64,000 bases of DNA from an uncultured Clostridia bacterium (GTDB taxonomy: Bacteria > Bacillota > Clostridia > Christensenellales > UBA1242): assembly GCA_947366545.1 (NCBI GenBank), contig CANBAL010000001.1, forward strand, positions 50,168-114,167, given 5' to 3'. The notes under the pieces are model-generated. The model was not told where the DNA came from and searched no databases. It worked only from the letters and a program-made list of their open reading frames with translations. Positions 1 through 46,831 of this stretch are shown piece after piece. The position numbers were made by a program, and so were the translations under genes. Numbering within the stretch: the first letter of the stretch is position 1; every line of letters starts with the position of its first letter.

Positions 1-2985
1 CTTCCAGCCAAGGCTCTTAGCAACAAGGCCAAGGTGAACTTCAAGAACCTGACCGATATTCATACGAGATGGAATACCAAGTGGGCTGAGTACGATATCA
101 AGTGGCTGTCCGTTTGCCATGAATGGCATATCTGCCTCTGGAAGAACGATAGAAACACAACCTTTGTTTCCGTGGCGTCCTGCCATCTTATCTCCGACTG
201 AAATTTTACGCTTTTGAGCAACTGTGACTTTAACCATCATGGTTACGCCTGGCTCAAGGTCATCTTTATTTTTCTTTGAGAATACTTGAACATCGACAAC
301 TACGCCACCCTTACCATGTTGTACACGGAGGGAGGTATCACGCACCTCTCTAGCCTTATCGCCAAAGATAGCACGGAGAAGTCTTTCCTCAGGTGTGAGT
401 TCGGTTTCGCCCTTAGGAGTAACCTTACCAACCAAGATATCGTTTGGATGCACCTCAGCACCGATTCTGATGATACCATTTTCATCAAGGTCTTTAAGTG
501 CCTCCTCACCAAGATTTGGAATATCTCTTGTAATCTGCTCATCACCTAGTTTTGTTGTACGGCATTTGATTTCTTGATCGTAAAGTGTGATTGATGTGTA
601 AACATCGTCTTTTACAAGGCGCTCATTAATAAGAATAGCGTCCTCATAGTTTTGTCCTTCCCAGTTCATATAACCGATAAGAACATTGCGGCCAACAGCA
701 AGTTCGCCATTATCAGTAGAGTATCCATCTGTGAGGATATCCCCTGCCTTCACCTTCTCCCCTTTCTTTACGCATGGGCGTTGGTTGAAACATACATCAT
801 CGTTTGCTTTTGCAAACTTAGTGAGTTCATAAATATCAATATTGCCATCTGGGCAAGATACTCTAATTTCGTCAGCTGAAACATAACTTACAACGCCGTC
901 ATGTTTTGCGAGGTGATTGCATCCGCAGTCGCGTGCTGCCTTTGCCTCCATACCAGTACCTACAATAGGTGCTTCTGGACGGAGAAGTGGCACTGCCTGA
1001 CGCTGCATGTTTGCACCCATGAGGGCACGGTTTGCCTCATCGCTGTTTACAAATGGAATAAGTGAGGTTGCCACCGAAATACATTGACGAGGTGACACAT
1101 CCATATAATCAACTTGATGTGCTGGGACCTCAGTCACTGTTGATCCGTGACGGCAGATAACACGCTTATTGACAAAGTGGCCTTCGCTGTCAAGTGGCTC
1201 GATTGCCTGAGCAATGAAACTTTCATTCTCAACATCTGCCATCTTATAGACGATTTTCTTAGTAACAATCCCTTTCTCCTTATCTACCACCCTATAAGGT
1301 GTTTCAAGGAAGCCATAGTCATTTACTTTAACATAAGCAGCAAGAGTGTTTAAAAGTCCGATTGATTGGCCTTCAGGTGTTTCAATAACACAAATTCGGC
1401 CATAGTGAGTATAGTGAATATCACGGATTTCAGGATCGGCACGTTCCTTCTTGATACCTCCTGGGCCTACCGCTGAAATACGGCGCTTCTGAGTTATACC
1501 AGAAAGCGGATTCTTTTGATCCATGATTTGTGAAAGTTGTGATTGCGAGAAGAAATCTCTAAGCGATTTGTTAACCGCTTTTGGATTCATAATTTGAGAT
1601 GGTGTAACCTCTACAAATTCACGACCTTGCAAGGTCTCTTTAACATTTGTGGAAAGTTTTGTTACGCCCGCTCTGAAAGCGTTGCAAGCAAGCTCGCCTA
1701 CTGTTGCCACACGCTTATTTGAAAGGTGTTCAATTTTATCTGTGCCTGCGATGCCTTCAAGTACATCAAGGTAGCAGCTGATTGTTGCGAGAATATCATC
1801 CATTGTGAGAGTAGTGATGATAAGGTCTTTTACGCTTGCCTTAATAGCCTCAATGCGTTTTTCCTTTGTCTTGTTTTCTTTAAGGATTTGTTGAAGTTTT
1901 GGATAGTACACATCCTCTTTTATGCCAAGTTCTTCTTGGTTGCAAGGGAATACCTCACTGAGAGTAACCCTGTTATTACCACGCATTAAGTGTTTCTTAT
2001 TTTGTAGTTGTACCCAAACCTCATTAATACCTGCGTTTTGTACTCTATTTGCAGATTCTTTTGTAAATACTTCACCTGCCTTAACAAGCACTTCGTCCCC
2101 ATCAACAAGGTTTTCTGCAGATACAAGTCCAACAAGTCTATCACGAAGAGCAAGTTTTTTATTGAATTTATATCTTCCAACTATTGAAAGGTTGTAGTAT
2201 GCGTCTGTAAAGAAGGATACATTAAGGAAACTTCTTGTAGTCTCAGCAGATGCAACATCGGCTGGACGAGTCTTTCTTGAAAATTCAATAAGTGCCTCTT
2301 CCTGAGTTGTTTGAGGCTCACGGTCAAGCACATTTTTAATATAGCGATTGTTACCAAATACCTTTAAAATCTCTTCGTTTGTAAAACCAAAGCATTTAAG
2401 GAAAAGACCAAGGCTGATTTTATTCTTTCGCTCAAGTACGATTTTAAGTGCTTCGTTTGCGCCCTGCATTACTTCAATCCATGTACCATGCACTGGAATC
2501 ATTTGAGCAATAAGGGTGGCATTATTTTCTTTCTCTCTTTTAAGGTATACGCTTGGGGCACGAACAATTTGACTGATTACTACCCTTTCTATACCATTGT
2601 AAATGAAAGAGCCTTGCTCAGTCATCATAGGAACATCACCCATGAATACCTCTTGCTCTACTGCTTGTCCTGTTTCCTCAACTACAAAGCGTGCCTTAAC
2701 TTTGAGTGGAGCAGAATATGTTGCACCACGGCGCTTGCACTCCTTTATAGAATATTTAGGCTCGCCAAATGGGAGAATCTCTGTGATATATAATTTTGCT
2801 TTTCCACTATAGTCTGTGAGTGGGAAAAATTCATCAAGCACAGCCTTGATTCCGTTTGTAAGGAAATTGTTATATGAATTCTTCTGGATGTCAAGAAGTG
2901 GTGGAACCTCTACCAGTTCTTCCGTCTTAGCGAAAGTATATCTTTCTGATTTACCATTTTTGATTTTTTTAACATTAACGGTCAT
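1..2985 (-). CDS. rpoB: DNA-directed RNA polymerase beta subunit, 3'-truncated by the window edge (absent from ORF track because open-ended)
   Basis: The reverse-strand frame is open from ATG at 2985..2983 (preceded by AAGGAGA) to position 1. The N-terminus reads MTVNVKKIKNGKSERYTFAKTEEL. The segment at 1..200 translates to VGDKMAGRHGNKGCVSIVLPEADMPFMANGQPLDIVLSPLGIPSRMNIGQVLEVHLG, the conserved RpoB catalytic-region signature. Confidence 0.95.
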   Translation of the reverse strand, partial: MTVNVKKIKNGKSERYTFAKTEELVEVPPLLDIQKNSYNNFLTNGIKAVLDEFFPLTDYSGKAKLYITEILPFGEPKYSIKECKRRGATYSAPLKVKARFVVEETGQAVEQEVFMGDVPMMTEQGSFIYNGIERVVISQIVRAPSVYLKREKENNATLIAQMIPVHGTWIEVMQGANEALKIVLERKNKISLGLFLKCFGFTNEEILKVFGNNRYIKNVLDREPQTTQEEALIEFSRKTRPADVASAETTRSFLNVSFFTDAYYNLSIVGRYKFNKKLALRDRLVGLVSAENLVDGDEVLVKAGEVFTKESANRVQNAGINEVWVQLQNKKHLMRGNNRVTLSEVFPCNQEELGIKEDVYYPKLQQILKENKTKEKRIEAIKASVKDLIITTLTMDDILATISCYLDVLEGIAGTDKIEHLSNKRVATVGELACNAFRAGVTKLSTNVKETLQGREFVEVTPSQIMNPKAVNKSLRDFFSQSQLSQIMDQKNPLSGITQKRRISAVGPGGIKKERADPEIRDIHYTHYGRICVIETPEGQSIGLLNTLAAYVKVNDYGFLETPYRVVDKEKGIVTKKIVYKMADVENESFIAQAIEPLDSEGHFVNKRVICRHGSTVTEVPAHQVDYMDVSPRQCISVATSLIPFVNSDEANRALMGANMQRQAVPLLRPEAPIVGTGMEAKAARDCGCNHLAKHDGVVSYVSADEIRVSCPDGNIDIYELTKFAKANDDVCFNQRPCVKKGEKVKAGDILTDGYSTDNGELAVGRNVLIGYMNWEGQNYEDAILINERLVKDDVYTSITLYDQEIKCRTTKLGDEQITRDIPNLGEEALKDLDENGIIRIGAEVHPNDILVGKVTPKGETELTPEERLLRAIFGDKAREVRDTSLRVQHGKGGVVVDVQVFSKKNKDDLEPGVTMMVKVTVAQKRKISVGDKMAGRHGNKGCVSIVLPEADMPFMANGQPLDIVLSPLGIPSRMNIGQVLEVHLGLVAKSLGWK

Positions 2986-3134
2986 TAGCATTCTCCTTAA
3001 TTTAAACGCAGTGTGAAAAATGAGCAAAAAAAGGACAATATAGCCTGATTAGGCCATAATTATCCCCTTATTTTTTAGTTATTTAACCTTAAAAATACTC
3101 AATTCTCTCACAATCGCCATTTATAGTTCATCTA

Positions 3135-3163
3135 ATTATATCAAAGTCGGCCATATCTGTCAA
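3135..3163 (-). promoter_or_regulatory. Consensus sigma-A promoter for rpoB (TTGACA-17 nt-TATAAT) with A/T-rich upstream tract
   Basis: The minus strand reads ttaataaaaaggTTGACAgatatggccgactttgaTATAATtagatg. The -35 is at 3158..3163, the -10 at 3135..3140, with an exact 17-nt spacer, about 150 nt upstream of the rpoB ATG. Confidence 0.6.
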
Positions 3164-3193
3164 CCTTTTTATTAAAAAAATTTTAAAATATAT

Positions 3194-3219
3194 TAAAAAA
3201 TGGCGACATTTTTCGCCAT
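3194..3219 (-). terminator. Rho-independent terminator ending the ATPase/giant-lipoprotein operon
   Basis: Directly after the TAA stop (3223..3225), the minus strand reads ATGGCGA-aaaatg-TCGCCAT followed by TTTTTT. This is a 7-bp GC-rich stem plus a U-tract. Confidence 0.7.
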
Positions 3220-3222
3220 TTT

Positions 3223-6200
3223 TTATCTAAGCCAAGTGAAAGTAAATTCAATTTTGAGTGTAACGCCGTTTGGAGTGAGGGTTTCATCCTTATTCCAGTA
3301 CTCACCCCAATTACTATCTTGAGCAAAGTCGCCTACAACCATACTATAAACCTTATCTGGTGATAGCATATCTCCACCTGCATCAGCTCCACTACCTGTA
3401 CCAAGATAGGTGACACTAAGCATTGCTTTAAAACTAGCCACTTTTGCGGCATATGATAGGCAACAAGTCTTTGCTATTTCAGTAGCACCGCCATTGCCAA
3501 AGTAGAAAACATGACTATAACCACCGACCGCTGGATTATATTGATACTTATCTGTGCTTTTCTCTACAACTTCCACTGCACCAACATTGGTTTTATCTTG
3601 CAAGTTCACTGTGATACTAGCCGTGGTGAAACACCTCATCATTACACTTGGCATTCCCTTGCCTACAAGGCCGCCTACATTTGCTTTAATCTCAGAACTG
3701 CTTACATGTGTACGCACCTCGATATCTGCAAGAGCATAAGCATCTTGTATTATCATAGCATTATTGCCATTTCCAACAAGACCACCGACATTAACCTCGT
3801 TCACCCTGCCAGATGCAGTAAGCTTTGTCGCCTTCATTGCAACACGATTAATTGTAAGCCCCGACTCTGCGCTGCCAACAACTCCGCCAAGATTTTTTGT
3901 AACGGCGTCAATATTGCCACTAACAACACTATCTCTAATCTCAGAGCCGCCTTGTCCAAATGCAACTCTACCAACAATGCCGCCGACACTACTTGCTTCA
4001 TACGTCCTACCATCAACATTTTTGTTTGGTACGGAAAGCGCAATCTCGCTATACGCATTACTTATCACGCCACCCGCAAGGAGACCAGCGATACCACCTA
4101 CTGCATTTGGAACTTCAGGTGCTAACGAGAAGTATTCCCCATTGCTACCACTAATTTGGACTTTATTTAAATTGCCCTTTACTTCACCAACCGCAAGACC
4201 GCCATAAGTGAAGGCCTTTATTTTTAAAGCATCTGTAAGATTTACATGCAAGTATTCCACGCTCACATTACTATCAATACCACCAAATCCAAGCCCCACA
4301 CGGTCGCCCATTATGTTTGTAATGTTCTTTACATAAAGTTTTTGCAAGTTTCCTCTTCCGCCTGCAAAGCCAACAATTCCACCAGCATATGAATACCTTG
4401 AAATATTTGTCGAACTTTGAGTGTAAGAATTAGTGTCATACTCGGTGCTAGTGACCTCCTCTGGTGTATAGTATGCAATCACTGCAAGCGAACCTGTGAT
4501 GTTTTTCATGTTATATACATTTATCGCCCTGCCTACCACACCGCCTACAAAATTGCTGCCTAGCACGCTGAGGCTTTCTTCACTATATACCTCAACATTA
4601 TATATATTGCCATATGACAAGGTGCCAGCAAGTACGCCCACACAATTTGTACTAGTGAAACTTATTTCCCGTGGCTCAAGATTCAAGTTCATAATAGTTC
4701 CTTGACCTGAAGCAGAAGGATCCTTACCAATTTGTCCAAAGAGACCCGCATTGACTAAGGTGTCATTAGAGTACAACCTGTTTTGAGAGATTGTCATACC
4801 ATTGCCCTCAAAATTACCAAAGTATGTAATTTTATAGGTTTGAGATGGCTCAGACATGTTGCTGTAGTTGATATCTGCAATCAAACGATAGTTGTTATTG
4901 TTATAACCCGATTGCGTTATAGGTGCCAGCATATTTCTTTCAAAGCTTTCCGCACTCTCAATTACATATGGATTTTTTAAACTGCCAAGTGGTGCACTGC
5001 CCTCAGAATAGATATAGTCATAAATCACATCGCCAGATGCATCCTCGTAACTATTGTAAAGCACTTTTTGACTGTTTGCAAGTATATTTGGTGCAACAAG
5101 TTCTAGTCTACCACTGCCAAATTGAACATTATCAAAATCACTGGTTGTATTACCTTTGCTATAGAACCATACACTATTTACTGTCGTTGCACTTGCATAT
5201 GAGAAATCAGAGAAGTAGTTGTCTAAATCTGCAAAGTCTGCCTCTTGCAATCTCTGAGTGCCAGCAAACTTTTTGTCGTCTACTGAAGAGTTGATTGGGT
5301 CTTGAGGATGCCCTTTACTATCTTTAGAAGGACGATACAAGTAATAACAATTCTCAAAAGTGCCGACTGTGCCGTCAATAGAGTTCTCCCTTGCAAAGCC
5401 TGAAGAAGAGTCCACCCTATTTACAAGCACGCACAAACTAAAGCAATTTTTAATTGAGCCTGCATTATCATGTACAAAACCCGCCTTTGTAGAGCCGCCT
5501 TTTACCATACTGATATTAGAATAACAATCTATTATCTTTCCATTGTTTGCAAATACAAAGCCTGCACTTGGTTGTGAGGACTCGATATAATGCTCTGTAT
5601 CCGTGGTGTAAATCTTATCTTTCTCTGGTTGCCCAGAAACATAACTCGTCATAATTGTAGGAGCGTTTCTATCATTTCTATCTGCGGCAGAAGTACCATT
5701 TTCTACTACAAGTCCACCAACTTTATGTCCACGCGAACTATTGCATATTAATTTACCATTTTTATAATAACTGCTTGCAATCTTCTTTGTATTAACACCT
5801 GCAATACCTGCAACATTGAAATTGCTTGTAATATTTAAACTGCTGCGGCTGTTGGTGATATTACCATTATTCTGGCCAACAAGCCCCGCAACATAACATG
5901 AAGTGTTTTGATATTCTGGGCAAGATGCTGAGAACACATAGCCATTACGAGCATTTTCGTTTATGCCACTATGAACATAACAATTTGTGATATTACCACT
6001 ATTCTCACCTGCAAGTAAACCAGCACTAAATGACGATGCCGAAGTATTAAAGGTTGTATCACCCTTAAGTGCAAGGGTAAGATTCTTAATTACTGCACCA
6101 GTGCCAATTCTACGGAACAAACCTAAATTTTCACCGGTGAAGGAATAGCCACCATTGAAATATATTGTATGACCATTGCCGTCAAAGGAAGCAATTAAAG

Positions 6201-9200
6201 TTTCGATTGGAGTAAATTCACTTGTTAAATCTATATCTTGTAGAAGTATATAGTGTGAATTTGGTGTCAAATCTTGCAAATCACTTTCGTCATAAATTGG
6301 TATTGGATGATCACTTGAACTTGATTGATATACATTAAACCTAAACTCAGTGTAAAGCGATGAAGCATTTTCTTCAGAAGATGGCTGGTAAACACCCGTC
6401 TTTTCCTCTAACTGATACTTACTGCTGTAAGAGAAAATGTAGTAAGAATTTACATAATTGTGTGTGATAACAGGTGTAATATTTAACCCATTTGTCCTAA
6501 AATAATAATTATCAAAACTGCTTGTAGGCAAGATTGTTTGTTCGCTATTATATTTTTGGGTTGTAACGCCACCTCCAATAGGAACACCCGCATCATTTAA
6601 GTTGGTGTAAACTTTCCAATCTGCATTTTCAGTCATTGCATTTACAAAGGTATTTACTTTTGTTACTACGCTATCTATGGTTTTATCATATTCAATAATA
6701 GAATACAAATCTGCCTCTAGTGGCTGAATATTGCCAATTTGGACATTGATTACGCCATTGTCCATACCCTTTACAATATCTTTGAATGCGTCACCTTGAG
6801 TATACTGATAGCCAACAACATACTCTAGTATATTTACCGGCATATCAAAGGAGGCCGAGCGCTCATTCTCCCCTTCCTTATGATAAGCATTTGTGGAAAC
6901 GACAATTTGATAACCTGTTGTGAAATCTGCATAATTGATAGCATCTGGCTTGATATTTAGATAATAACTGCCATTTTCTAGTGTAACATATGCCACATTG
7001 CTGATTGTCGTTTTATCATAACTGCCATTGCTACTGCAAGCATAGACTTTAGGCTGCTCGATATCATCAAAAGTAAATCCATGATACTCTAAGTTAAGTT
7101 TATATTTAAGCCCTCTTGCAACACTATAAGAATGGTCAGCATTTTGGGTTTTTCCATCGATTGAAATTACTACCTTATTCTCAAGATGTACATCAAGAGT
7201 TATATTCTTGGTTTTTACAGGCTTTCCTTTGTCAAACACAGTCACCTTAAATTCTGCTTTAGCGTTGTCTGTAACACTGCTTGTGCCAACCATGTATTTA
7301 ATGTAAATAACACCATGATACTTTTCACTCTTATCGCCGTCATAGAATTTATTGATATCATTCCAGTAAATTCTAAGTCCATTTGGCACAGGGGCACCTA
7401 TTACTGTATTTTCAACAAACACTTTGTCAGTGGAATCCCCATTTGCCTTTTTTCTTCCCACCAGACTAAAGGAGCCTTTACCATTACCAAGGATGTTCGC
7501 TAAATCGGTGTTTACGATTTCAATGTAATCATAATCAGCATCATCAGGCGTAAGGCTGACAACCAAAAGGCCACTATTCCCCGCCTCAGCTTTTAAAGAT
7601 GCGTTTGAAAAGTCTTTATTTGTCTCTACATCCGTAATCTTGGAATAATTGTCAATTGAGATATCAGTGACTGCCATGCTTAAAAGCGTGAAAGGCACCT
7701 CACAAGAAATTTCGGGATTTGAATCCGCATATATTCTTATATAATAGTCTTTGTAAATATCTAAAGAATGACGATTTGTGTAATATGACGACATTCTCTC
7801 AATTGAAATGCCAACAACAAAATCTTGCCAGCCGATATTTGCACCCTCTTTAGGGTTGAACTCAACTTTAAATAGTCTATCGTCTTTTTTGTATAGATAA
7901 TTTAAGCCAAGTTTTTCATCACCTTGAAGAGGATTGCCTTCACTATCAAATATAGCGTATAGAGGCTGATTTTCCTTGCTTTGTGAATTGATGCGTATAT
8001 AATTTTCAGTCTCTTTATAGGTGTACACTGGCAACGAACCAAATCTTACTGTCATCTGCTCAGCACCCTTTGTATAGGTGACTGAGGCTTGTGTTATATG
8101 CTTATTTACATAACATATAGAGCCGTCATTTGACACAAGTTTCGTCCTAATGTCAAGAACATAAGTGCCTTCTTCACTGGCACTAGTTCTATTAATTATG
8201 ACATTTTGACCATTTGAAACAACATTTAAAGAAGTTGTATTAGGCGAAACGCTACCATCAAGACTTGTAAACCCTACAATAGATACTTCTGGAAGAATCT
8301 CGGTGTTTTGAACAAGGTTGATGCTTACATTTTCAAACAGACCTTGCCCCAAAGCGTTGAAAATCTCCTCTTCATTTAACGACAAACTATAATTTGGCTT
8401 TACATTCAACGCTACTGAATTATTGCCCTTTATCTCAAACGGACTATGATCGACCGGACGATTCCCTTTTGAGTTTGAATCGTATACTATCGAAATGCTT
8501 TCATCAGAATTGAAATAATTGACAGTTTTGATTATTATTTTCTTGTTTTTAATTTTATTTAAAACGCTGTTTACATTAATAACTGTTTCACCTGTCGCCT
8601 TGATTGTCATACGACCATATTCGTCAATAAACAAATTATTGCTGTTTTCTGTCTCAAGTATCACACCGTTTTTTGTAGGTTTGATTGGGTATAGTGGTGA
8701 TGTGGTTGAAAGAAAGTTGAAATTTTGATCGAGAATCGCTTGCAATGAAGCAACCTCATTCGTGTATGCTGCCTCAAAATAATAAGCATAGAAGGTATCA
8801 AAAGCACCTCTTTCAAAAGATTTAAACCCTTTATTTGCTTCTATTGTCCACAATTCCTTATCTAAAGTGAAGAACCATTGATACTTAATTTGTGCTTGTT
8901 CCTCGGCAGTAACGCCTTCTGACGCATATTGGATATAATCGCCATAATATGATGAAGAGTCTACACGTATATCAGTGATTTCTGCTGCACCATTCCCGCC
9001 ATTTTTAGTACGGTCAATGTAGGTCTTGACATTGGTTTCATTTATTTCAAGGGTGCTACCAGCACCAAACGCAATAACATTAAGATTTACAGAGTTGTCA
9101 CCTTCTGGTCGAGTTAAATAACGGATCACCATACTGCTTTCTGTGCCAGTATAGCCCTCGTCAACCGCTTGAATAAAATAGTCGCCATAATTTGTAGGAG

Positions 9201-12200
9201 TGTCTTTCCACAAAACATTTCCTGCAATAGCGCCGATATGTTCGCTTTTGCCTCTTACAAATGCACGCGATGTAATGCCCTTAAAAATTGCACCTGTTGA
9301 CTTTCCAACTACGCCCCCAACATAAGAGGATCCCTCTATTCTGCCGCCGACAAGTATCCCGTCACCCGCTGTGATTGTCGCGTCCACCTTCTCTCCATTT
9401 TCCAGTTTCTTTTTGCTGCCCTTGATATTGCCTTCGTTTAATCCTGTAACTCCGCCAACATAATCATCTGATGTATTTCCTTCGCTTTTTGAAACAGTTA
9501 TATTAACATAACTAAGATAGTTGGAATACCCTGTTAATATTAGATTTTGATAATCTATCTTTTCAATAGTTGCCGTCTCATCATTTAACCCGACAACACC
9601 ACCAACATTGACATTTCCATTTGCGACTACTGACAATGTAAAGTTGCCACTATATGCCAAAATGCGTGGACTTAATAGTCCGCCCTGTTCAAAAGCGGTA
9701 TAATCCTGCTTAATCGTACCATTATTTTCACCCGCAACAATACCAATATTTGCTATACCTAAAGTTGTAACCTGACTATTAGCAGTGATTTTTACCCCGA
9801 TATTTGTAAGCGTGCCATTATTGATTCCTGTCACAAGACCGATGTTGGCTTGTTCCACAGCTCCTTGCACGTTGATACTGCCTTCAAATTGTACATTTTC
9901 AATTTGTCCGCTTACGCTTGTAAATAACCCATAGTTATTACCTTCGCCTTTGGTAACTTTAATTCCTATTATAGCCGCATAACTTGTTTTACCAACTATG
10001 CTTCCAGAAAAATCACCAAGTGGGAGATTGTCATTGGTTATACTAGCAATATTAATAGATGTTGAAATTACATAATGAGAACTTAAAGAGTTCTTTATTG
10101 CAAGTACATCCTCTGCAGTTTCTAGTGTAAATGGATTTTCTGAAGTGCCATTGTTATAATTAATGGCAATTTCTAGAGGCCTATAACCATCTTTGATAAC
10201 ACCATTTTCATCAAGCCAATCAGTAGCGGCAATCGTTAAATGCCCCGTAAGGGAATTGTTAAGTTTTGCAATATCACTGGTTACAAAAGCATCGTCGACA
10301 TCTAAGCTTATTAAATAACTTCCATCTTCTTGTTTTTCTTTTCTGATACCTTTGTATTGTCCGTCAACACCTTTTTCACCGAAAATATTTGCATGTTGTA
10401 TTGTGCCATTAAGCGAAACACTTGCTGGTTGGAAAGAGACTTGTATATCCGGATTTGTTGCCTTATTCTCCGTCATATCATAAACTATCAAGGTTTTATG
10501 ACGGCTGGTTTCGCGGTTTTGTGAAGAAAAATTAAGTTCATCGATGTTTTTGGAAAGACTTAATCTGCTTACCTCTTGATAAGGTTCGCCATTTATCGTG
10601 ATTGAATATGAATAAAGAGTGTCTAATTGTTGTACATTAGCCACCAAAGTAATATTAAGTACACCAACGGAAGGAAGTGCGGTAAAAGTCATAGTATTAG
10701 GATTAAAGGTACCGAAAGTACCGATAGAATAGTCTCTATATGGATCGTTAGGGTTATAAGTTATTACACTATCCTCATATGTCCAATAAACATAGTTTTT
10801 ATTAAACTCGTCATATTGATATTTACTATTTGTTTGGTCATAGAAATAGTAACCCATTTTTCTAGGTTCAATCTCAAAGGTAGCACTGCGCAACCTATCA
10901 TTACTAACGCCTAGGTAAATATTTGCAAACGATGCATCGATTTTTGCCGTATAATCTCCGTTGCAGTCTCTTGTTTTATAGACATTCAGCCTCTCTATAA
11001 GACTGTAAGAAACGATATCTAATTTGAATTTTTGCTCAATAATATGTAATTTAAAGTCATCCGATACAGTGCTTAAATTGAGGTCTGCAATAATATATCC
11101 ATGACCGTCACCTGCCGTGGTTATAACAAAGGTTGTATCTACAGCACGATAGTTGTAACTAAAACCTGTTTCTTCGCTTTCACTTGGATTGGCATATTGC
11201 AAAACAGTGGATGCGGCATCATCATTCGCAACAAGTTTTACCTCGGCTTTAGTACTTTCATCATTATTTAAAATGAATATTCTAACTCCGTCAACACCGC
11301 TTTCATCCTCTTCTTCAGTGAAAGTTTCAGTTTCCACTATTGCACCATTTGCGTTTTCATACGCAATGCCAATTCGACCGTCAAAACTATCGCTAACAAC
11401 AAATCTAATGTCTTCACTTGTACCGTTATCAAGAGAGAGTGTATATACTCCGCTGCCGATTTTTCCACGAGTGCGCAAGTTCATAACAATTTTATAGCCC
11501 TCTGTATCGCCGCTATCATATCTTTCTCCGAGTGCGGCCTCACCTTCCATCATTATGACATCTTGACCACCCTCACCACCTTTATAAACTAAGGTTGCAT
11601 ATCGGAATTCTGCATTCGCATAAAATCCTTGGAAGGATATTCTATCAGTATTTTGTATAGGAAGATAAACACCAGTATTTTTATAATACTGATCTACTGG
11701 AAAAATTCTGCTTGCACCCTTTTTGATTGTGTATGGTATCTTCTTCTCAATAGCCCTAGTCTGTCCATGTATTTCGTAGGACACTGACAGCGTGATATCA
11801 CCGCTGCCTGTTGTTATCTGATCGCCACCTCTTACAAGCAAAGGTAAAGACAAATCATAAATATCAAATTCACCGGCAAGCCTTTCTTCTCCATTATATT
11901 TGACTGCCACTTGTTCATCAAAAGAGACTTTCATGCCAGTAAATACACAGTCCTTTGGACTTACCGATAAATTGAGATACTGCCATCCAAAATCACCAGA
12001 ATACTTATCATAAAATTCAAGTGCGTCTGGATTTGCCTTATTATTTACATAAATATCTGTTGGTTGATATATTATCTTAACTGGTATCTCCAAAGAGTAG
12101 TTTACGCTTTCATCCTCGGCATTTTTAAATCCATCAAAATAAAATTGCAGATTTATTTGTGTGTCTAAACTGGTGGAAGATTTATTATCTATTTTGAATA

Positions 12201-13287
12201 CATAGGTGGTCTCAGTTTCCTCGCTTACCACCTCACTTACACTAAGATATCTTTCATCAAAACTATAATCATTTTTTATAAGACTGCTTTTTGTAGGAAG
12301 AGTAACAACAAGTTTAGCGCTTCTATAATCCTTCCTTTCCACCTTATCAATTTCATTTAAATTAGGCATTAAGAGTATTTCTCTCTCTTCTTGATAATCC
12401 CTATCATAACTACTGCCGTCTTTATCTTCATAGCAATATTTATACTCGGCTTGTCCGATATTGCCCAGTATATAAAAATCCTTTTGGACATACGGATTGT
12501 CCAAATGTGCGTATTTTGCGATAAATGTATATTTTTCACCTAATGCTACGGGATGTGCCTCACCATCAAAGGTATATTCCCCTTCATCCCCTATACTTAC
12601 AGGTATGAAATCATAACTAGTTTTTTCTTGTTGTGAAGAAGTACTCTCTTTCAAAGTAAACAAATTGTTTTGACTATCTTTGAAGATTAAATAGTCCTCA
12701 ACAAGTTTGACAGAAACAAATTCGTTTCTATATTCATCCCCGTCTTTTATATCATTAAGGGTGAGTGGTACGCTCCACCCCTCTGGCAAAAAACCATAGA
12801 AATAATAAGAAAGGTCGCGTGCATTACCATTGAGGATAAAATCATTTGCGTTTGGCGATAGTTCATAGGTCGGCGATACATATAAATTTTTATCTTTATT
12901 TGTGATGGTGTCCGCATACTGTCTTACCATTACGGTGAGAGTATAATCTTTATTGCCATCTACTGTAACTGCCCTAATCCTTGCACTGCCGCCCTTAAGA
13001 CCTTTTAATCTTAAAGTGGTCACGCCATTTGATGGGTCTGAAGCCTCATAGCTTACTACGGTTGGATCATCATTATGTATATTAAGTCGCCCACTCATCC
13101 CACCAAAATAGTTTTGGATTGTAAAAGCAATTTCCCGCTCCTCTTCTACATCAAGCGTTACGGTGCTTTCTTCACATGTTAAAGAAACATTTGAATAGTC
13201 GGGCTCCCCACAACTAACGAAAAAGATGCCTGCAACTGCAAGCAGCAAACTTAACAAAAATAAGTTTATCTTTTTCGCTATAGTCAT
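3223..13287 (-). CDS. Giant (3,354 aa) predicted surface lipoprotein with an N-terminal Ig-like (Big_2-like) domain and three GLUG-motif beta-helix modules
   Basis: An uninterrupted 10-kb ORF. The N-terminus MTIAKKINLFLLSLLLAVAGIFFVSCGEPD is a signal peptide with a lipobox-like FVSC. Many repeats match the GLUG-motif pattern (GG[VIL][VA]G.N.G.I.N), for example VGGVVGLNDETATI, AGLVGQNNGNITNS, AGFVFANNGKIIDCYSN and VGGLVGNGNNAMIIQDAYA. The SD GGAG abuts the stop codon of the upstream ATPase. There is no LPXTG motif and no HEXXH motif. Confidence 0.85.
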   Translation of the reverse strand: MTIAKKINLFLLSLLLAVAGIFFVSCGEPDYSNVSLTCEESTVTLDVEEEREIAFTIQNYFGGMSGRLNIHNDDPTVVSYEASDPSNGVTTLRLKGLKGGSARIRAVTVDGNKDYTLTVMVRQYADTITNKDKNLYVSPTYELSPNANDFILNGNARDLSYYFYGFLPEGWSVPLTLNDIKDGDEYRNEFVSVKLVEDYLIFKDSQNNLFTLKESTSSQQEKTSYDFIPVSIGDEGEYTFDGEAHPVALGEKYTFIAKYAHLDNPYVQKDFYILGNIGQAEYKYCYEDKDGSSYDRDYQEEREILLMPNLNEIDKVERKDYRSAKLVVTLPTKSSLIKNDYSFDERYLSVSEVVSEETETTYVFKIDNKSSTSLDTQINLQFYFDGFKNAEDESVNYSLEIPVKIIYQPTDIYVNNKANPDALEFYDKYSGDFGWQYLNLSVSPKDCVFTGMKVSFDEQVAVKYNGEERLAGEFDIYDLSLPLLVRGGDQITTGSGDITLSVSYEIHGQTRAIEKKIPYTIKKGASRIFPVDQYYKNTGVYLPIQNTDRISFQGFYANAEFRYATLVYKGGEGGQDVIMMEGEAALGERYDSGDTEGYKIVMNLRTRGKIGSGVYTLSLDNGTSEDIRFVVSDSFDGRIGIAYENANGAIVETETFTEEEDESGVDGVRIFILNNDESTKAEVKLVANDDAASTVLQYANPSESEETGFSYNYRAVDTTFVITTAGDGHGYIIADLNLSTVSDDFKLHIIEQKFKLDIVSYSLIERLNVYKTRDCNGDYTAKIDASFANIYLGVSNDRLRSATFEIEPRKMGYYFYDQTNSKYQYDEFNKNYVYWTYEDSVITYNPNDPYRDYSIGTFGTFNPNTMTFTALPSVGVLNITLVANVQQLDTLYSYSITINGEPYQEVSRLSLSKNIDELNFSSQNRETSRHKTLIVYDMTENKATNPDIQVSFQPASVSLNGTIQHANIFGEKGVDGQYKGIRKEKQEDGSYLISLDVDDAFVTSDIAKLNNSLTGHLTIAATDWLDENGVIKDGYRPLEIAINYNNGTSENPFTLETAEDVLAIKNSLSSHYVISTSINIASITNDNLPLGDFSGSIVGKTSYAAIIGIKVTKGEGNNYGLFTSVSGQIENVQFEGSINVQGAVEQANIGLVTGINNGTLTNIGVKITANSQVTTLGIANIGIVAGENNGTIKQDYTAFEQGGLLSPRILAYSGNFTLSVVANGNVNVGGVVGLNDETATIEKIDYQNLILTGYSNYLSYVNITVSKSEGNTSDDYVGGVTGLNEGNIKGSKKKLENGEKVDATITAGDGILVGGRIEGSSYVGGVVGKSTGAIFKGITSRAFVRGKSEHIGAIAGNVLWKDTPTNYGDYFIQAVDEGYTGTESSMVIRYLTRPEGDNSVNLNVIAFGAGSTLEINETNVKTYIDRTKNGGNGAAEITDIRVDSSSYYGDYIQYASEGVTAEEQAQIKYQWFFTLDKELWTIEANKGFKSFERGAFDTFYAYYFEAAYTNEVASLQAILDQNFNFLSTTSPLYPIKPTKNGVILETENSNNLFIDEYGRMTIKATGETVINVNSVLNKIKNKKIIIKTVNYFNSDESISIVYDSNSKGNRPVDHSPFEIKGNNSVALNVKPNYSLSLNEEEIFNALGQGLFENVSINLVQNTEILPEVSIVGFTSLDGSVSPNTTSLNVVSNGQNVIINRTSASEEGTYVLDIRTKLVSNDGSICYVNKHITQASVTYTKGAEQMTVRFGSLPVYTYKETENYIRINSQSKENQPLYAIFDSEGNPLQGDEKLGLNYLYKKDDRLFKVEFNPKEGANIGWQDFVVGISIERMSSYYTNRHSLDIYKDYYIRIYADSNPEISCEVPFTLLSMAVTDISIDNYSKITDVETNKDFSNASLKAEAGNSGLLVVSLTPDDADYDYIEIVNTDLANILGNGKGSFSLVGRKKANGDSTDKVFVENTVIGAPVPNGLRIYWNDINKFYDGDKSEKYHGVIYIKYMVGTSSVTDNAKAEFKVTVFDKGKPVKTKNITLDVHLENKVVISIDGKTQNADHSYSVARGLKYKLNLEYHGFTFDDIEQPKVYACSSNGSYDKTTISNVAYVTLENGSYYLNIKPDAINYADFTTGYQIVVSTNAYHKEGENERSASFDMPVNILEYVVGYQYTQGDAFKDIVKGMDNGVINVQIGNIQPLEADLYSIIEYDKTIDSVVTKVNTFVNAMTENADWKVYTNLNDAGVPIGGGVTTQKYNSEQTILPTSSFDNYYFRTNGLNITPVITHNYVNSYYIFSYSSKYQLEEKTGVYQPSSEENASSLYTEFRFNVYQSSSSDHPIPIYDESDLQDLTPNSHYILLQDIDLTSEFTPIETLIASFDGNGHTIYFNGGYSFTGENLGLFRRIGTGAVIKNLTLALKGDTTFNTSASSFSAGLLAGENSGNITNCYVHSGINENARNGYVFSASCPEYQNTSCYVAGLVGQNNGNITNSRSSLNITSNFNVAGIAGVNTKKIASSYYKNGKLICNSSRGHKVGGLVVENGTSAADRNDRNAPTIMTSYVSGQPEKDKIYTTDTEHYIESSQPSAGFVFANNGKIIDCYSNISMVKGGSTKAGFVHDNAGSIKNCFSLCVLVNRVDSSSGFARENSIDGTVGTFENCYYLYRPSKDSKGHPQDPINSSVDDKKFAGTQRLQEADFADLDNYFSDFSYASATTVNSVWFYSKGNTTSDFDNVQFGSGRLELVAPNILANSQKVLYNSYEDASGDVIYDYIYSEGSAPLGSLKNPYVIESAESFERNMLAPITQSGYNNNNYRLIADINYSNMSEPSQTYKITYFGNFEGNGMTISQNRLYSNDTLVNAGLFGQIGKDPSASGQGTIMNLNLEPREISFTSTNCVGVLAGTLSYGNIYNVEVYSEESLSVLGSNFVGGVVGRAINVYNMKNITGSLAVIAYYTPEEVTSTEYDTNSYTQSSTNISRYSYAGGIVGFAGGRGNLQKLYVKNITNIMGDRVGLGFGGIDSNVSVEYLHVNLTDALKIKAFTYGGLAVGEVKGNLNKVQISGSNGEYFSLAPEVPNAVGGIAGLLAGGVISNAYSEIALSVPNKNVDGRTYEASSVGGIVGRVAFGQGGSEIRDSVVSGNIDAVTKNLGGVVGSAESGLTINRVAMKATKLTASGRVNEVNVGGLVGNGNNAMIIQDAYALADIEVRTHVSSSEIKANVGGLVGKGMPSVMMRCFTTASITVNLQDKTNVGAVEVVEKSTDKYQYNPAVGGYSHVFYFGNGGATEIAKTCCLSYAAKVASFKAMLSVTYLGTGSGADAGGDMLSPDKVYSMVVGDFAQDSNWGEYWNKDETLTPNGVTLKIEFTFTWLR

Positions 13288-13295
13288 TTTTCTCC

Positions 13296-15971
13296 TTACT
13301 CTTGCTTATCTTTAAAGATAGATACTACATAATCAAGTGGATTTATTTGTACCATTGTTCTTGCTGTTGGTGCCGTAATTACGAAGGCTTGACCAACAGG
13401 TGCGGTAACGATTGCATTCTGCTCCTCACCATTAATTCCACCAGAGTTTTTGTACAGGTCAATAAGACTGTTAACATCGTTTGGTGATAGTGAGAAAATC
13501 ATTGAATATTGGCAGGCGTTAATAATCGCGGTTGATTGTCTCTTGATTTCTTCCGAACCTACGAAGTCGTTAATATTTTGTGTAATGACAACCTGCATTC
13601 CGCCATACTTACGAATTCTCTTTGCCATCGCTGTCATGAAGTTTAACGCGATTGGATATCTTGGATTGATGAAGGTGTGTGCCTCATCCACGACAATGAT
13701 AATATGTCTATTAGTTTTATGTAATTTATTATAATCCTTATTATTAATAATTTCATTTTCAAGGTACTTGAATACAAGAAGCATTTGCGCATTCGTAATT
13801 GTATCGTTGTTTCCTGCAATCAAAGATTGGAAGTTGAAGGTAACAAAGTTTTCGTTGGTTTCAATAGAGGTAGGGCCATTCCAAAGGTTGGAATTTCGTC
13901 CGCCCTTTGCGAATTTCTTAATGTACGCCTCTACAATACGAAGGTTTTTGGCAAGGAATTCATCCTTGACACTTTTCTGTCTTCTTAAAATCAAATCGTA
14001 TAAATTATCAAATATAGGATAATCCTCAGGTTTCAAGGTTTTAAGGTCAGTATTTTCATCGATATTAAACTCATGATACATATCTTGAACAAGAGAGTTT
14101 AATACCTCAAAAGCATCACTTGGTATTCCTTCAAGCACAGTCCTAAAGAACTGCTCAAGGAATTGAAGGTGCTGATTGAAAGAATCGTCCTGCTTTTTAA
14201 CTTCAAAGTAAGTCTTCTTTCCTTCATCATCGTCCTTATCTAATGCCCTGATGACATGGAATGGATTTAATATACCTTGCAGTGATGAGCCGACATCAAT
14301 CATCTTGCCCTTAAGGTTGAAGGTAAGTTTATCGTACTCCTTCTCGGGGTCAAGAATGAAGATTTTACTATTATCAGCCGCAAAATTTGCAAGCAGCATT
14401 TTTGTGGCGAAAGATTTTCCAGAACCCGACTTTCCTATGACCATCATGTTGGAGTTAACACGGGATGGATCAGTTTTTGTCTCTTGTTTGAAGAAGTCGA
14501 TGAATACTGGATATTCATTATCGCCGATATAGAATCCACGCTCATCTTGAAGCTCACTTGAAATAAATGGGAATACGCCAGCAAGTGAATCAGTTGGTAT
14601 TCCTCGGCTAAACTGTTTGATATAATCCCTTTGAGAAACATTTGTACTGATAAACGCATCTATCTGACGAGCAAACATTTCGCTATATCTAAATCCGCCC
14701 TGTCTTAATATTGCCTTGATATCTTTACGCGCAGAATCTTCACAAGTGATAAAAGTGTTTACATCGTATAAGTTTTGGTTGTTATTTTTGAGTTGTGCCA
14801 AAAGATCTCTTAAAGTTTCAAGGTGAGTTTGCAGTTCAATCTGCGTACTTGTCTTACCAGTCTTATATAACTTTGTTTCCATATCCATTATGGCTTTATC
14901 AATTTTCTTCTCTGCTTCAAACTTTGGTGCTTGTTTAAATTTCATGACTACTTTTGTTCGGTCAAGTAGGAAGAAGGATGTTCCCCATGCGTTGCCTACT
15001 TGGAGTGGATATTCGGTAAGGGCAAAGGTACGATAATTCTTTCCATCAATATTGTATTTTGCTGAACTGAACTTTATCTTGTTTGGTGTTGCCCAGTCTT
15101 TGTATTCACTGAAAGGTATGCCTTCAAGCTCCCTTTCATCAAACTCACGATTATAATTTGCACGAAGGAATACTGCAAGTTCCTGTCCATAAAGTCTTCT
15201 TGTACCGATTGGTGTCAATGCCGAAGCCATTGAGCTTGCCATACCATTGATCGTATTTTCAAGTGCCTCGATATCTTTATCAAAAACTACAAGATAAAAG
15301 AAATCTTTATAAATTTTGTTTTTCCTATTCTTATCTTCAAGGAAGGATACCCTCTCTTCAAAGATAGGCGCCCTTGCATCTACCTCGGCTTGTGACATTT
15401 GACCGTCATACATCATGTCGAGAAGATTGTCATACTTTTTATTTTCGTTGTATGTAAAGTTATCTAGCACCACCGCTTTGTTAATTTTAACTATCTCACA
15501 AGTTTGACTTTCTGTTAAACGGCGGAGTGCATTTGCAAAGCTGTTGATAACATTGTCTTGATTGAATTCATTTAAAAGGCCAAAGAGTATTGGCTTAACT
15601 TCAAGCACCTGTGCATAGTAAGACCCAAAAGAAATAAACCTATCTTGATATATTCCCTCAAACGGAATAATCTCATGCATATTCGCCTTGCCCTTTGGAG
15701 AGGACTTAACATAATTCTTTTTCTGCATTGAGAATCTTACAAGGTAGGAAATCGTGACATACATTCGTTCACTGTCGCTTATCTTGAAAAACAATGATAT
15801 CGCAAATATCGCCCATACTATTCCAAGCCAGTATGAACCTGTGAAAAAGTTTGCCCCGACAAGCAAGCCAAATACCACCGCGGCAACAATCGCGATGATA
15901 AGGTCTATCCCTGTAATTCCACGGATAAACTCAAGTTTAACTTTTGTTCTTCTAGGTATAACTCTAACCAC
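13296..15971 (-). CDS. VirB4/TraE-type (type IV secretion-like) ATPase with an N-terminal two-helix membrane module resembling PrgI/TcpE/VirB3
   Basis: 891 aa with a GTG start and SD GTGAGG 5 nt upstream. Walker A is VIGKSGSGKSF (about 14412..14440). Walker B is HIIIVVDEAHTF (about 13680..13705). The central YRTFALTEYPLQVGNAWGTSFF matches the VirB4-type motif of Gram-positive conjugation ATPases. Residues about 20-65 (GIDLIIAIVAAVVFGLLVGANFF...WLGIVWAIFAISLFF) form two hydrophobic helices. Confidence 0.75.
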   Translation of the reverse strand: MVRVIPRRTKVKLEFIRGITGIDLIIAIVAAVVFGLLVGANFFTGSYWLGIVWAIFAISLFFKISDSERMYVTISYLVRFSMQKKNYVKSSPKGKANMHEIIPFEGIYQDRFISFGSYYAQVLEVKPILFGLLNEFNQDNVINSFANALRRLTESQTCEIVKINKAVVLDNFTYNENKKYDNLLDMMYDGQMSQAEVDARAPIFEERVSFLEDKNRKNKIYKDFFYLVVFDKDIEALENTINGMASSMASALTPIGTRRLYGQELAVFLRANYNREFDERELEGIPFSEYKDWATPNKIKFSSAKYNIDGKNYRTFALTEYPLQVGNAWGTSFFLLDRTKVVMKFKQAPKFEAEKKIDKAIMDMETKLYKTGKTSTQIELQTHLETLRDLLAQLKNNNQNLYDVNTFITCEDSARKDIKAILRQGGFRYSEMFARQIDAFISTNVSQRDYIKQFSRGIPTDSLAGVFPFISSELQDERGFYIGDNEYPVFIDFFKQETKTDPSRVNSNMMVIGKSGSGKSFATKMLLANFAADNSKIFILDPEKEYDKLTFNLKGKMIDVGSSLQGILNPFHVIRALDKDDDEGKKTYFEVKKQDDSFNQHLQFLEQFFRTVLEGIPSDAFEVLNSLVQDMYHEFNIDENTDLKTLKPEDYPIFDNLYDLILRRQKSVKDEFLAKNLRIVEAYIKKFAKGGRNSNLWNGPTSIETNENFVTFNFQSLIAGNNDTITNAQMLLVFKYLENEIINNKDYNKLHKTNRHIIIVVDEAHTFINPRYPIALNFMTAMAKRIRKYGGMQVVITQNINDFVGSEEIKRQSTAIINACQYSMIFSLSPNDVNSLIDLYKNSGGINGEEQNAIVTAPVGQAFVITAPTARTMVQINPLDYVVSIFKDKQE

Positions 15972-16109
15972 ATTTACCTCACGATTTTATTGTACTACAA
16001 ATATCGCTAAAAATACAAATGAAAAACATTCATTTTACATAAAAAAAATAAAATATTTTTAAATTAAATAAATAATTAAAAATATAATATTTTGCTGTGT
16101 TTTTTTATT

Positions 16110-16793
16110 TTAAATTGAATTAAAAAATAAATAATTTAATTTATTATGTTTTTTTGCTTTATTTATGCCATTTTGTGTAATGACCTCACCCTTTTTGATT
16201 ATCAGTTCGTTATTCATGCCATAGATATCCATGGTAGCCGTCCTATTTAAAAGCATTGTAGCGTTTAGCGACATTTTTGGAGGGGCACTTTGAATATTAT
16301 TTTTACCTTTTTGCATTATTTCAATTTTAGGAATATTTAATATTTTTTCATTTTTAATATTATTTTTTAATTTTTTTTGCTTTTTTAATGAAAAAATAAT
16401 AAATTCTTCGCTAAAATTAGAAATATATTTCTGTTTTATTTCGCATTTATTTGTAATTAATTTATCTATTTTTTTATTAATTATTTTTATTTTTTCAACC
16501 CTGCCAAGGTTTACTCCGTTCTTATCAAAGACAGTTTTACCAAGAGGATTATGTGCTTTCTCAAGTGCCAGTTCACAGTCTGCGGCACTCTCTATCACGA
16601 CGCACTCCCCTTCATATGCAAGCACTTTTTGCACAGGAAGAAAAAGCTCCCTTTCACTTTCCTCATCCACCACCGTAAATCCTTTGAGCGTTAATAGATT
16701 TTCATCAAAACACATATTTAAAACATAACCTACCATTGTCGCCTCATTAAGCGCCAATACTTTTTTACCAAAAATCATTTCAAGTTTTTCCAT
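16110..16793 (-). CDS. PRC-barrel (YlmC/YmxH-like) domain protein with Lys/Asn-rich low-complexity linker
   Basis: The N-terminal GKKVLALNEATMVGYVLNMCFDENLLTLKGFTVVDEESERELFLPVQKVLAYEGECVVIES fits the PRC-barrel sporulation-protein pattern. A second similar segment reads GKTVFDKNGVNLGRVEKIKI. The middle is encoded by a very AT-rich tract. Confidence 0.45.
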   Translation of the reverse strand: MEKLEMIFGKKVLALNEATMVGYVLNMCFDENLLTLKGFTVVDEESERELFLPVQKVLAYEGECVVIESAADCELALEKAHNPLGKTVFDKNGVNLGRVEKIKIINKKIDKLITNKCEIKQKYISNFSEEFIIFSLKKQKKLKNNIKNEKILNIPKIEIMQKGKNNIQSAPPKMSLNATMLLNRTATMDIYGMNNELIIKKGEVITQNGINKAKKHNKLNYLFFNSI

Positions 16794-16945
16794 GATATAT
16801 GACTATTTCTTTAAAAGCTCAATTATTTCTATTTCTTTAAATAAGTCACAAATCGTCTTTTTTCGCAAGAGGAAGGCTTGTTTCTATAAAATTTTCTTGA
16901 CTTAACTTAAAAAAAAGAATAACATAAACTTACGAGGTTTATGTT

Positions 16946-17152
16946 ATGAACAAAATTACAAAAAATATGACGATAGCAAAAGTGCTTGAACTTGACGAAT
17001 CGCTTGCCGATATTTTTATGGGCTTTGGAATGTTTTGCATCTTCTGTCACCTAAGTGAAGAGGAAACAATTGAAGAGGCTTGCAAAGTGCATGATATAGA
17101 TTTGGATCTTTTACTTCAAAAATTAAATGAAGAGTTAGCCGCCAAAAACTAA
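16946..17152 (+). CDS. DUF1858 / hybrid-cluster-protein-associated redox disulfide domain protein
   Basis: This 68-aa protein (ITKNMTIAKVLELDESLADIFMGFGMFCIFCHLSEEETIEEACKVHDIDLDLLLQKLNE) matches the pattern GM.C..C....E.ieEA...H.iD...L of that small family. Confidence 0.6.
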   Translation: MNKITKNMTIAKVLELDESLADIFMGFGMFCIFCHLSEEETIEEACKVHDIDLDLLLQKLNEELAAKN

Positions 17153-46784: not shown

Positions 46785-46801
46785 ACTCTCCTCTTTGAAG
46801 A

Positions 46802-46831
46802 TAGTATGTCTATTCAATTTTAAAATTATGC
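46802..46831 (-). promoter_or_regulatory. Forespore sigma-G-type promoter upstream of the ger operon (GCATA-18 nt-CATACTA)
   Basis: The minus strand reads GCATAattttaaaattgaatagaCATACTAtcttcaaagaggag. This matches the B. subtilis sigma-G consensus GHATR-N18-CATXHTA. gerA-type operons are classically sigma-G dependent. Confidence 0.45.

Follow-up and report, generated by a model that had tools for sequence, protein, structure and literature searches.

What kind of protein needs a single reading frame of 3,354 codons in a bacterium of the Clostridia, and why does its gene stand directly behind that of a conjugation-type ATPase? The locus that raises this question lies in a stretch of 64,000 nucleotides (here the window) from an uncultured Clostridia bacterium (assembly GCA_947366545.1, contig CANBAL010000001.1), in which the giant gene occupies positions 3223..13287 of the minus strand. 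An original prediction, made from the sequence alone, described the product as a lipoprotein bearing three GLUG beta-helix modules, here designated A, B and C from the N-terminus, that are separated by Ig-like spacers. The analyses presented here favour a lipid-anchored surface fibre or adhesin, in which an Ig-like extender carries beta-helix binding modules, with a probability of about 0.55.

Integrity of the gene and extent of the family

The giant open reading frame (ORF) is uninterrupted and comprises 3,354 codons plus a stop codon, as had been predicted. The protein is collinear with its orthologues from end to end, at 30-42% identity. An exact database look-up gave no record of it (nor of the L10 ORF or of P0007), and a literature search found no description of the giant-lipoprotein family or of its pairing with the ATPase. 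An exhaustive HMMER search with residues 1-1050 against 1.84 billion representatives returned 91 representatives, of which 46 are full-length (3,312-3,884 amino acids) and the rest fragments; the family as treated here comprises 46 clusters at 50% identity. Outside the family, nothing among the 1.84 billion representatives matched this stalk query of about 1,050 residues. A word-indexed search with the same residues found nothing, although orthologues exist, because of the limit of its prefilter. The clade that carries the family is labelled "Clostridia bacterium" or "Clostridiales bacterium" in the sources and comes from human gut samples.

The giant gene has been called as two genes in three related loci (L001, L002 and L005; the loci of relatives are numbered in this way throughout), with products of, for example, 2705 and 998 or 2579 and 663 amino acids. 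The breaks coincide with runs of N (positions 9885-9910 in L001, 7721-7730 in L002 and 1686-1785 in L005) that lie inside the repeat-rich modules B or C, and homology resumes in a new frame beyond each gap. The split calls are therefore scaffolding artefacts, and a two-gene architecture in these relatives is rejected. The copy in L004 has three frame breaks without runs of N, at about 7330-7400, 7760-7860 and 10000-10020, and at one of them about 16 codons seem to have been lost after DGNGH; a pseudogene confined to this lineage or a misassembly would account for it. In all ten N-free loci with enough sequence (L006-L008, L011, L012, L014, L015 and L020-L022, with seven distinct sequences among them) the frame stays open for 3,290 codons or more, and gene calls in N-free contigs yield products of 3,503, 3,489 and 3,682 amino acids.

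The split calls and the L004 copy might be taken to mean that the giant ORF is decaying into a pseudogene or was produced by faulty assembly. This explanation is refuted by the gaps found at the split calls, by the open frames of the N-free contigs, by the length of the 46 representatives and by ratios of non-synonymous to synonymous substitution (dN/dS) of 0.05-0.12. In-frame disruption in relatives, which had been named as a sign that the prediction was wrong, comes down to the ambiguous L004 copy. No repeats at the DNA level and no simple-sequence tracts able to drive phase variation were found in the giant gene.

Three homologous modules

The predicted repeat blocks and the entry motifs that open them were both recovered. 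Module A covers 9028..10149 (about residues 1047-1420), the core of module B 5338..6321 (residues 2323-2650) and module C 3595..4986 (residues 2768-3231), all on the minus strand. The entry segments start at residue 1051 in A (NPFTLETAEDVLAIKN, nt 10137-10090), at residue 2327 in B (HPIPIYDESDLQDLTP, nt 6309-6262) and at residue 2772 in C (NPYVIESAESFERNML, nt 4974-4927), and all three are kept across the family. In A the family-conserved motif (nt 10090-10149) is G-T-x-x-N-P-F-x-L-E-x-A-E-D-V. Module C has the entry G-S-x-x-N-P-Y-x-I-x-x-A, an EGNGM motif and nine GG(V/I/L)(V/A)G rungs. A single shared NP(F/Y).(I/L)E.AE motif had been proposed for the three entries, but that of B is a distinct variant, S-S-x-x-[SH]-P-I-P-[IV] followed by DGNGHTI (family consensus S-P-I-P-[IV]-x-x-Y-x-[DE]-[LF]).

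The rungs differ in a similar way. Those of the GG type, expected in all three blocks, are found in A and C, whereas B uses the variant AG(L/I/F)(V/A)-x-N-x-G-x-I-x-(N/D)-C. The pattern G[GA][VILF][VAI]G occurs 10 times in the protein (three times in block A and seven times in block C) against 0.2 expected from the protein's own composition. Glycine and asparagine are enriched in the three blocks; glycine makes up 10-14% there and 6-7% in the stalk and the spacer.

At the level of BLAST the blocks are 22-27% identical in pairwise comparison. When each block is represented by a family profile (from 47 sequences), the alignments start at the entry motif and stay in register, with a probability of 99% for A and B (E 2e-18), 98.8% for A and C (E 5e-17) and 96.8% for B and C (E 3e-10). 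Judged by these profiles the three modules are clearly homologous. A module resembles its orthologous counterpart in another species more than it resembles the other two modules of the same protein, and the triplication therefore predates the family.

Predicted fold of the modules

An AlphaFold2 model of B and C together (residues 2327-3354, from an alignment of 7 sequences; mean predicted local distance difference test, pLDDT, 65) contains two all-beta domains of short periodic strands, at residues 2327-2650 and 2771-3231, in agreement with the limits of the blocks and with pLDDT mostly 70-90 inside the modules. Each domain opens with a short strand and then a helix, which together correspond to the entry motif. 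The top Foldseek match in PDB is 3N6Z from Bacteroides ovatus (template modelling, TM, score on target 0.52, probability 1.0). It is followed by the beta-helix N-terminal domains of the IgA1 proteases of S. pneumoniae and G. haemolysans (probability 0.95-1.0) and then by generic right-handed beta-helices such as PL6 lyases, Ag43 and tailspikes. The result obtained with the viral library BFVD agrees with this picture. The beginning of module A, modelled together with the stalk, has a strand at residues 1053-55 and a cap helix at 1058-66, followed by short periodic strands or beta-helix coils; its C-terminal limit is approximate because that model ends at residue 1200.

The Pfam family Glug (PF07581, gathering cut-off 20.5 bits) matched module C alone with 37.4 bits (E 2.5e-9, 5 stretches), module B alone with 20.2 bits, just under the cut-off, and module A alone with 12.5 bits, below it; the whole giant protein scored 14.8 bits, also below it. 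Faint Glug matches were seen in orthologues. Searches of PDB sequences with modules A, B and C and with a profile of B and C gave no significant match. The name GLUG beta-helix is used here because of the fold prediction and the one clean match of a hidden Markov model (HMM), in C, with A and B included by homology. The models support the modules as right-handed parallel beta-helices of GLUG type. The structure prediction agrees with the original prediction in giving periodic all-beta modules whose best matches are GLUG-type beta-helices; the assignment of all three modules to GLUG was overstated, as only C exceeds the Pfam cut-off.

The stalk, the spacer and the C-terminal end

The N-terminal stalk (10153..13200, minus strand; residues 30-1045) was modelled with AlphaFold as part of residues 1-1200, from an alignment of 22 sequences and with a mean pLDDT of 85.7. 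The model is all-beta, with about ten tandem Ig-like beta-sandwich domains up to residue 1045, the first of which (nt 12922-13185, residues 35-122) has eight strands. Foldseek matches of the stalk include NUP210, titin, DSCAM, the neck of GhpA and the S-layer proteins Sap, EA1 and SbsB, with E down to 6e-26. No Pfam family reached its cut-off in the stalk. A Big_2-type domain had been predicted after the lipobox; the model shows an Ig-like beta-sandwich there, but a scan of residues 26-130 with Big_2 (PF02368) gave no match at E up to 10, and the match to Invasin_D3 is sub-threshold (15.1 bits against a cut-off of 33, E 0.034). Self-BLAST of the protein detected no repeats among the stalk domains, and profiles did not link the stalk to the spacer or the tails. 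The internal repetition that had been expected is seen in the mutual homology of the modules but neither in the DNA nor between the stalk and these other parts. The only match in a scan of GTDB was a short contig of a Treponema metagenome-assembled genome (MAG; L003, positions 2926-3210), 35% identical to residues 228-320 of the stalk, and this stretch may be a stray relative of an Ig-like domain.

Between modules A and B lies an 890-residue spacer, S2 (6328..8997, minus strand; residues 1431-2320), to which no fold could be assigned. In the copy of the window it has no Pfam match, no match to PDB sequences by profile and no profile similarity to the stalk. Sub-threshold Big_2 matches (16-19 bits against 22.8) were found in the S2 of three orthologues, at a position equivalent to about residues 1530-1580. 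The Ig-like character proposed for the spacers is thus supported by model and Foldseek for the N-terminal stalk but is not established for S2.

Modules B and C are separated by a junction of about 115 residues or 0.35 kb (4993..5337, minus strand; residues 2651-2765), and not by a spacer of about 1 kb or more as had been supposed. The junction is modelled with pLDDT below 50 and holds the conserved sequence VW...GRLEL, in which V2706, W2707, R2727, L2728, E2729 and L2730 are each at least 90% conserved in the family. The C-terminal tail (3226..3594, minus strand; residues 3232-3354) is variable, the least conserved part of the protein, and has pLDDT below 35. The last 20 or so residues (nt 3226-3290) carry a terminal motif, W...[ST]-x-L-x-F-E-x-x-[LF]-x-W(L), in about three quarters of the family members. 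It is kept despite the highly variable tail that precedes it and may be a cap or docking element. VW...GRLEL and the terminal motif may represent the C-terminal closing elements of B and C, respectively; on this assignment B and C would form a tandem pair at the C-terminal end rather than two of three separate heads on spacers. The layout of a polymorphic toxin with an immunity gene was not found, since the variable tail ends in a conserved motif and is followed by a terminator and rpoB.

Export and anchoring

The signal peptide and lipobox, read from the sequence, lie at 13210..13287 on the minus strand (residues 1-26, ending in ...IFFVSC; lipobox MTIAKKINLFLLSLLLAVAGIFFVS-C26). A lipobox F-x-[GAS]-C is present within the first 32 or so residues in 46/46 full-length representatives, in agreement with the original prediction. 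In the model residues 2-25 form a helix, followed by a flexible linker around Cys26. The giant protein is probably lipidated at Cys26 and likely to be exposed at the surface.

Regular-expression searches found no LPXTG, HEXXH, HXXEH, SLH-like or choline-binding motif in the giant protein. Pfam gave no match to sortase-anchor, SLH or choline-binding domains, and neither Pfam nor NCBIfam assigned it to a peptidase or other enzyme family. The 204 positions that are at least 90% conserved in the family are mostly glycine, asparagine and aromatic residues, with no histidine and no catalytic-looking motif. Both the absence of other anchors and the statement that the protein is not of the Zmp or IgA-protease type were thereby borne out, M26 domains also being absent.

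Divergence and selection

Identity between species is 30-42% for the giant protein, compared with 74-90% for the ATPase and 82-85% for RpoB at the same loci. Over this divergence the architecture is constant, and the length variation among relatives stays within the range given above for the 46 representatives. Within species the giant gene has dN/dS of 0.12 between L006 and L008 and of 0.05 between L011 and L014, with no non-synonymous change in the ATPase gene in either pair. The giant gene is under purifying selection within species. The rapid divergence, the constant length and the low within-species dN/dS taken together read as typical of an exposed binding protein.

Between L006 and L008, 10 of the 29 amino acid differences fall in module A, at residues 1162-1361 of the L006 protein. 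This clustering may be a sign of local diversification, although dN/dS over the whole gene is 0.12.

The ATPase gene and the chromosomal locus

The gene directly upstream of the giant gene (13296..15971, minus strand) encodes an ATPase of 891 amino acids with two N-terminal hydrophobic segments and conserved, intact Walker A (GKSGSGKS) and Walker B (VVDEAH) motifs. It matches P-loop_TraG, DUF87 and AAA_10 in Pfam and the VirB4 structure 4AG5 in PDB (E 4e-40). The NCBIfam model NF045975 (VirB4_plasma, the ATPase Mbov_0397 of an integrative and conjugative element, ICE) is matched from position 15 to 892 of 894 with 551.2 bits, just below its cut-off of 590. The nearest annotated plasmid relatives are ICE ATPases of Spiroplasma and Mycoplasma, at 27-31% identity. 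The ATPase is a member of the VirB4 superfamily, and by its sequence score it falls short of equivalence to the ICE subfamily.

The stop codon of the ATPase gene lies 8 nt before the ATG of the giant gene, and the gap holds GGAG. A terminator-like hairpin (3194..3225, minus strand) with a 13-bp stem and a T run overlaps the giant-gene stop codon. Beyond it a perfect sigma-70-type promoter with TG (TTGACA-17-TATAAT; 3135..3163, minus strand), outside the operon, precedes rpoB (1-2991, minus strand). Because the terminator is followed by a separate rpoB promoter, the unit is taken to consist of the ATPase gene and the giant gene, possibly with the PRC-like gene described below. From this arrangement the giant gene is read as the second gene of a conserved two-gene operon.

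The two genes are neighbours at all loci that offer enough sequence (L001, L004, L006-L012, L014, L015 and L020-L022), and the giant gene precedes rpoB wherever the downstream flank is available. Where the sequence reaches, the recurrent order is (Mfd ... SpoIIID ... HflX ... PRC-like) - ATPase - giant gene - (rpoB, rpoC). By this synteny the pair is a fixed locus of the core chromosome just upstream of rpoB across the clade. The original prediction had the coordinates and the kind of protein essentially right but did not notice the ATPase partner or the conservation of the locus.

Neither the window nor the flanks of the relatives contain a gene for VirD4, a VirB6-like protein, a pilin-like protein, a relaxase, an integrase or a hydrolase of a type IV secretion system (T4SS). 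No relative was found in viral contigs, and a phage or mobile origin is rejected on this ground. A defence system is likewise rejected, as PADLOC gave only generic P-loop matches on the ATPase.

A PRC-like protein of 227 amino acids, which matches a PRC barrel weakly and contains a low-complexity K/N-rich insert, is encoded at 16110..16793 on the minus strand, in a region of 26% GC, and at the same position in L006-L008 and L020-L022; whether it belongs to the system of ATPase and giant protein is uncertain. Positions 16000-17000 of the window form a sharp low-GC island (26% against about 37%), and an AT-rich tandem repeat of about 52 nt (16057-16155) lies before the ATPase gene. In the usual bacterial gene order rplJL and rpoBC are linked. 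Here some 48 kb separate rpoB from the L10 leader and rplJ (51012-51722, plus strand), which are on the opposite strand, and the linkage is therefore broken in this lineage. The window also contains genes for a SpoVB-like flippase and an operon of GerXA, a spore permease and GerXC (31981-33537; 42954-46817, minus strand), and SpoIIID is found near the locus in L006 and L020. Because of these sporulation and germination genes the host is considered to be an endospore-former.

Comparison with known systems

The best structural matches of B and C are 3N6Z (BACOVA_03286, a "putative IgA1 protease") and the beta-helix of the M26 IgA1 proteases (6XJB, 7UVL and 7UVK), with which the modules share Glug motif repeats and a compact right-handed helix without large excursions. 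In the IgA1 proteases this domain is a substrate-gating and binding element and not the catalytic part (PMC7695701). Unlike them, the giant protein lacks the M26 middle and C-terminal protease domains, HEXXH, LPXTG and G5 regions, has three beta-helix domains per chain and carries a predicted lipid anchor in place of sortase anchoring. It also has no match to a PDB entry at the sequence level, even by profile.

The stalk of about 1,000 residues of tandem beta-sandwiches resembles the giant Ig-array fibres, such as GhpA of Aureispira, and Sap, EA1 and SbsB, in a similar size class, and like the former it would be a long extender bearing distal binding modules. SiiE, Ebh and the RTX ice- or host-binding adhesins belong to the same class of giant surface fibres. 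The giant protein differs from these in lacking an RTX or type I secretion signal and an LPXTG or SLH anchor. Its stalk domains have diverged beyond mutual sequence recognition, in contrast to the near-identical tandem repeats of many giant adhesins, and no Pfam Ig family reaches its threshold in them.

A third comparison concerns the gene pair. In the element ICEA of M. agalactiae the surface lipoprotein CDS14 is essential for mating and promotes contact between donor and recipient, and the VirB4 homologue CDS17 is required (PMC6030558). The present locus shares with the mollicute ICEs a full-length relative of the VirB4 subfamily that is genetically associated with a surface lipoprotein. It differs in several respects. 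The ATPase does not quite reach the family cut-off (551 against 590 bits), further ICE genes are absent from its surroundings, and the pair belongs to the core chromosome of spore-forming Clostridia. The giant protein is unrelated in sequence to ICE proteins and far exceeds in size the annotated proteins of the ICE compared (1,220 amino acids at most).

Function and alternative explanations

On the favoured reading the giant protein would be exported by Sec and then lipidated at its N-terminus. From the membrane outward it would consist of the stalk of roughly ten Ig-like beta-sandwiches, about 1,000 residues long, the first right-handed GLUG-type beta-helix (A), the spacer of about 890 residues and, at the distal end, the tandem pair of B and C. 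Each beta-helix would open with a short strand (NPY-x-I), an amphipathic cap helix (A-E-D-L...) and a Y-x-L-x-x-D-I strand, to which B and C would add a (D/E)GNG turn. The fibre would extend past the wall and its beta-helix surfaces would bind a ligand such as a glycan of the host or the diet, mucus or another cell, with rapid turnover of sequence between species on a fixed architecture. The gene would be co-transcribed with that of the ATPase, which would be embedded in the membrane, and the two proteins would probably work together. For the giant protein a binding function is considered most likely.

Several points weigh against this reading. The beta-helix assignment draws on Foldseek matches with weak E-values (none better than 1.7e-3) and on a model of low mean pLDDT, and Glug exceeds the Pfam cut-off in one module of the three. 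Many polysaccharide lyases and hydrolases, too, are built on right-handed beta-helices. An activity could be concealed in the 890 residues of S2 or in the last 120 residues, both without a fold assignment. The lipobox has phenylalanine, a minor variant, at position -3, where leucine is commonest. Finally, a simple adhesin exported by Sec would not be expected to have so strongly conserved a VirB4 partner, and the protein may therefore belong to a machine with a function other than adhesion.

As an alternative, the lipoprotein and the ATPase together could be what is left of a type IV secretion or conjugation system after domestication; the lipoprotein would make or sense contact between cells, like CDS14 or the PrgB-type adhesins of Gram-positive T4SSs, and the ATPase would power a step of transfer or assembly. 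Adhesion would then be no more than the opening step of a contact-dependent process. The end-to-end match to VirB4_plasma, the match to 4AG5, the ICE ATPases as nearest annotated plasmid relatives, the intact Walker motifs, a conservation close to that of RpoB and the constant adjacency of the genes at 8 nt all agree with such an origin. So do the ICEA precedent, in which lipoprotein and VirB4 homologue are both needed for mating (PMC6030558), and an element of M. hyopneumoniae that encodes a 1,220-amino-acid protein two genes downstream of its VirB4 homologue. However, the window and the relatives' flanking sequences contain no further T4SS gene, the locus is fixed in the core chromosome beside rpoB and not mobile, with no counterpart found in viral contigs, the giant protein resembles none of the Mbov_039x families, and an ordinary signal for Sec and signal peptidase II needs no dedicated export ATPase. 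We regard a remnant of this kind as possible, though unlikely. A somewhat more doubtful proposal is that the two genes form an unrecognised surface machine in the core genome of this clade of gut Clostridia, in which a T4SS ATPase, no longer used for conjugation, would build, lengthen or drive a contact fibre of about 3,300-3,900 residues or else carry DNA or protein across the contact.

Two further explanations concern the giant protein itself. If the beta-helices were enzymes tethered on a stalk (polysaccharide lyases, glycoside hydrolases or proteases other than M26) that degrade host or dietary polymers, this would suit an organism of the gut, as judged by sample names, and the modules do contain invariant acidic residues (D2351, D2587, E2783 and E3035). 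Foldseek also lists PL6 alginate lyases, GH55, GH28, chondroitinase B and the depolymerases of phage tailspikes, but far below the GLUG-type beta-helices, with probabilities of 0.06-0.6 and TM-scores of 0.1-0.3. The lack of any CAZy-type or peptidase family in Pfam and NCBIfam, the dominance of structural glycines, asparagines and aromatic ladders among the conserved positions and a divergence (30-42% identity) that enzymes with a fixed substrate do not usually show make the enzymatic explanation improbable. Slightly less credit still is given to a structural part of the envelope, either an S-layer-like coat or an appendage of the spore or exosporium. The similarity of the stalk to the Ig-like arrays of Sap, EA1 and SbsB would fit, but many Ig arrays not of S-layers appear in the same Foldseek list, and no SLH or other wall-binding domain is present. 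The occurrence of the gene throughout the clade at one fixed position would also fit, yet it stands second behind an ATPase gene and has no strong promoter of its own. The sporulation genes nearby (SpoIIID in L006 and L020, SpoVB and the Ger genes in the window) would fit too, but they are separate units of a housekeeping type.

Significance

The modular architecture alone is not surprising, because giant surface proteins built from Ig arrays and beta-helices are familiar. The original remark that such a structure would be unusual for a spore-former was an opinion, and proteins of this kind are common. What is new is a distinct, unannotated family of 46 clusters at 50% identity, which keeps its architecture and length while its sequence changes several times faster than that of its neighbours and which is paired with an orphan VirB4-type ATPase, nearly as conserved as RpoB, at a fixed locus before rpoB. 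The repeat-rich modules break short-read scaffolds, and in MAGs the giant gene is consequently often mis-called as two.

The constant pairing with the ATPase is the most interesting feature of the locus; the mycoplasma ICE precedent is suggestive, and the rest of a T4SS was not found in the window or the flanks. If the pairing is functional, abundant uncultured spore-formers of the human gut would have put an ATPase of conjugation to use in a surface function that is chromosomal and shared by the whole lineage. The giant protein would moreover be a good candidate for the recognition of host or partner, for strain typing and as an antigen.

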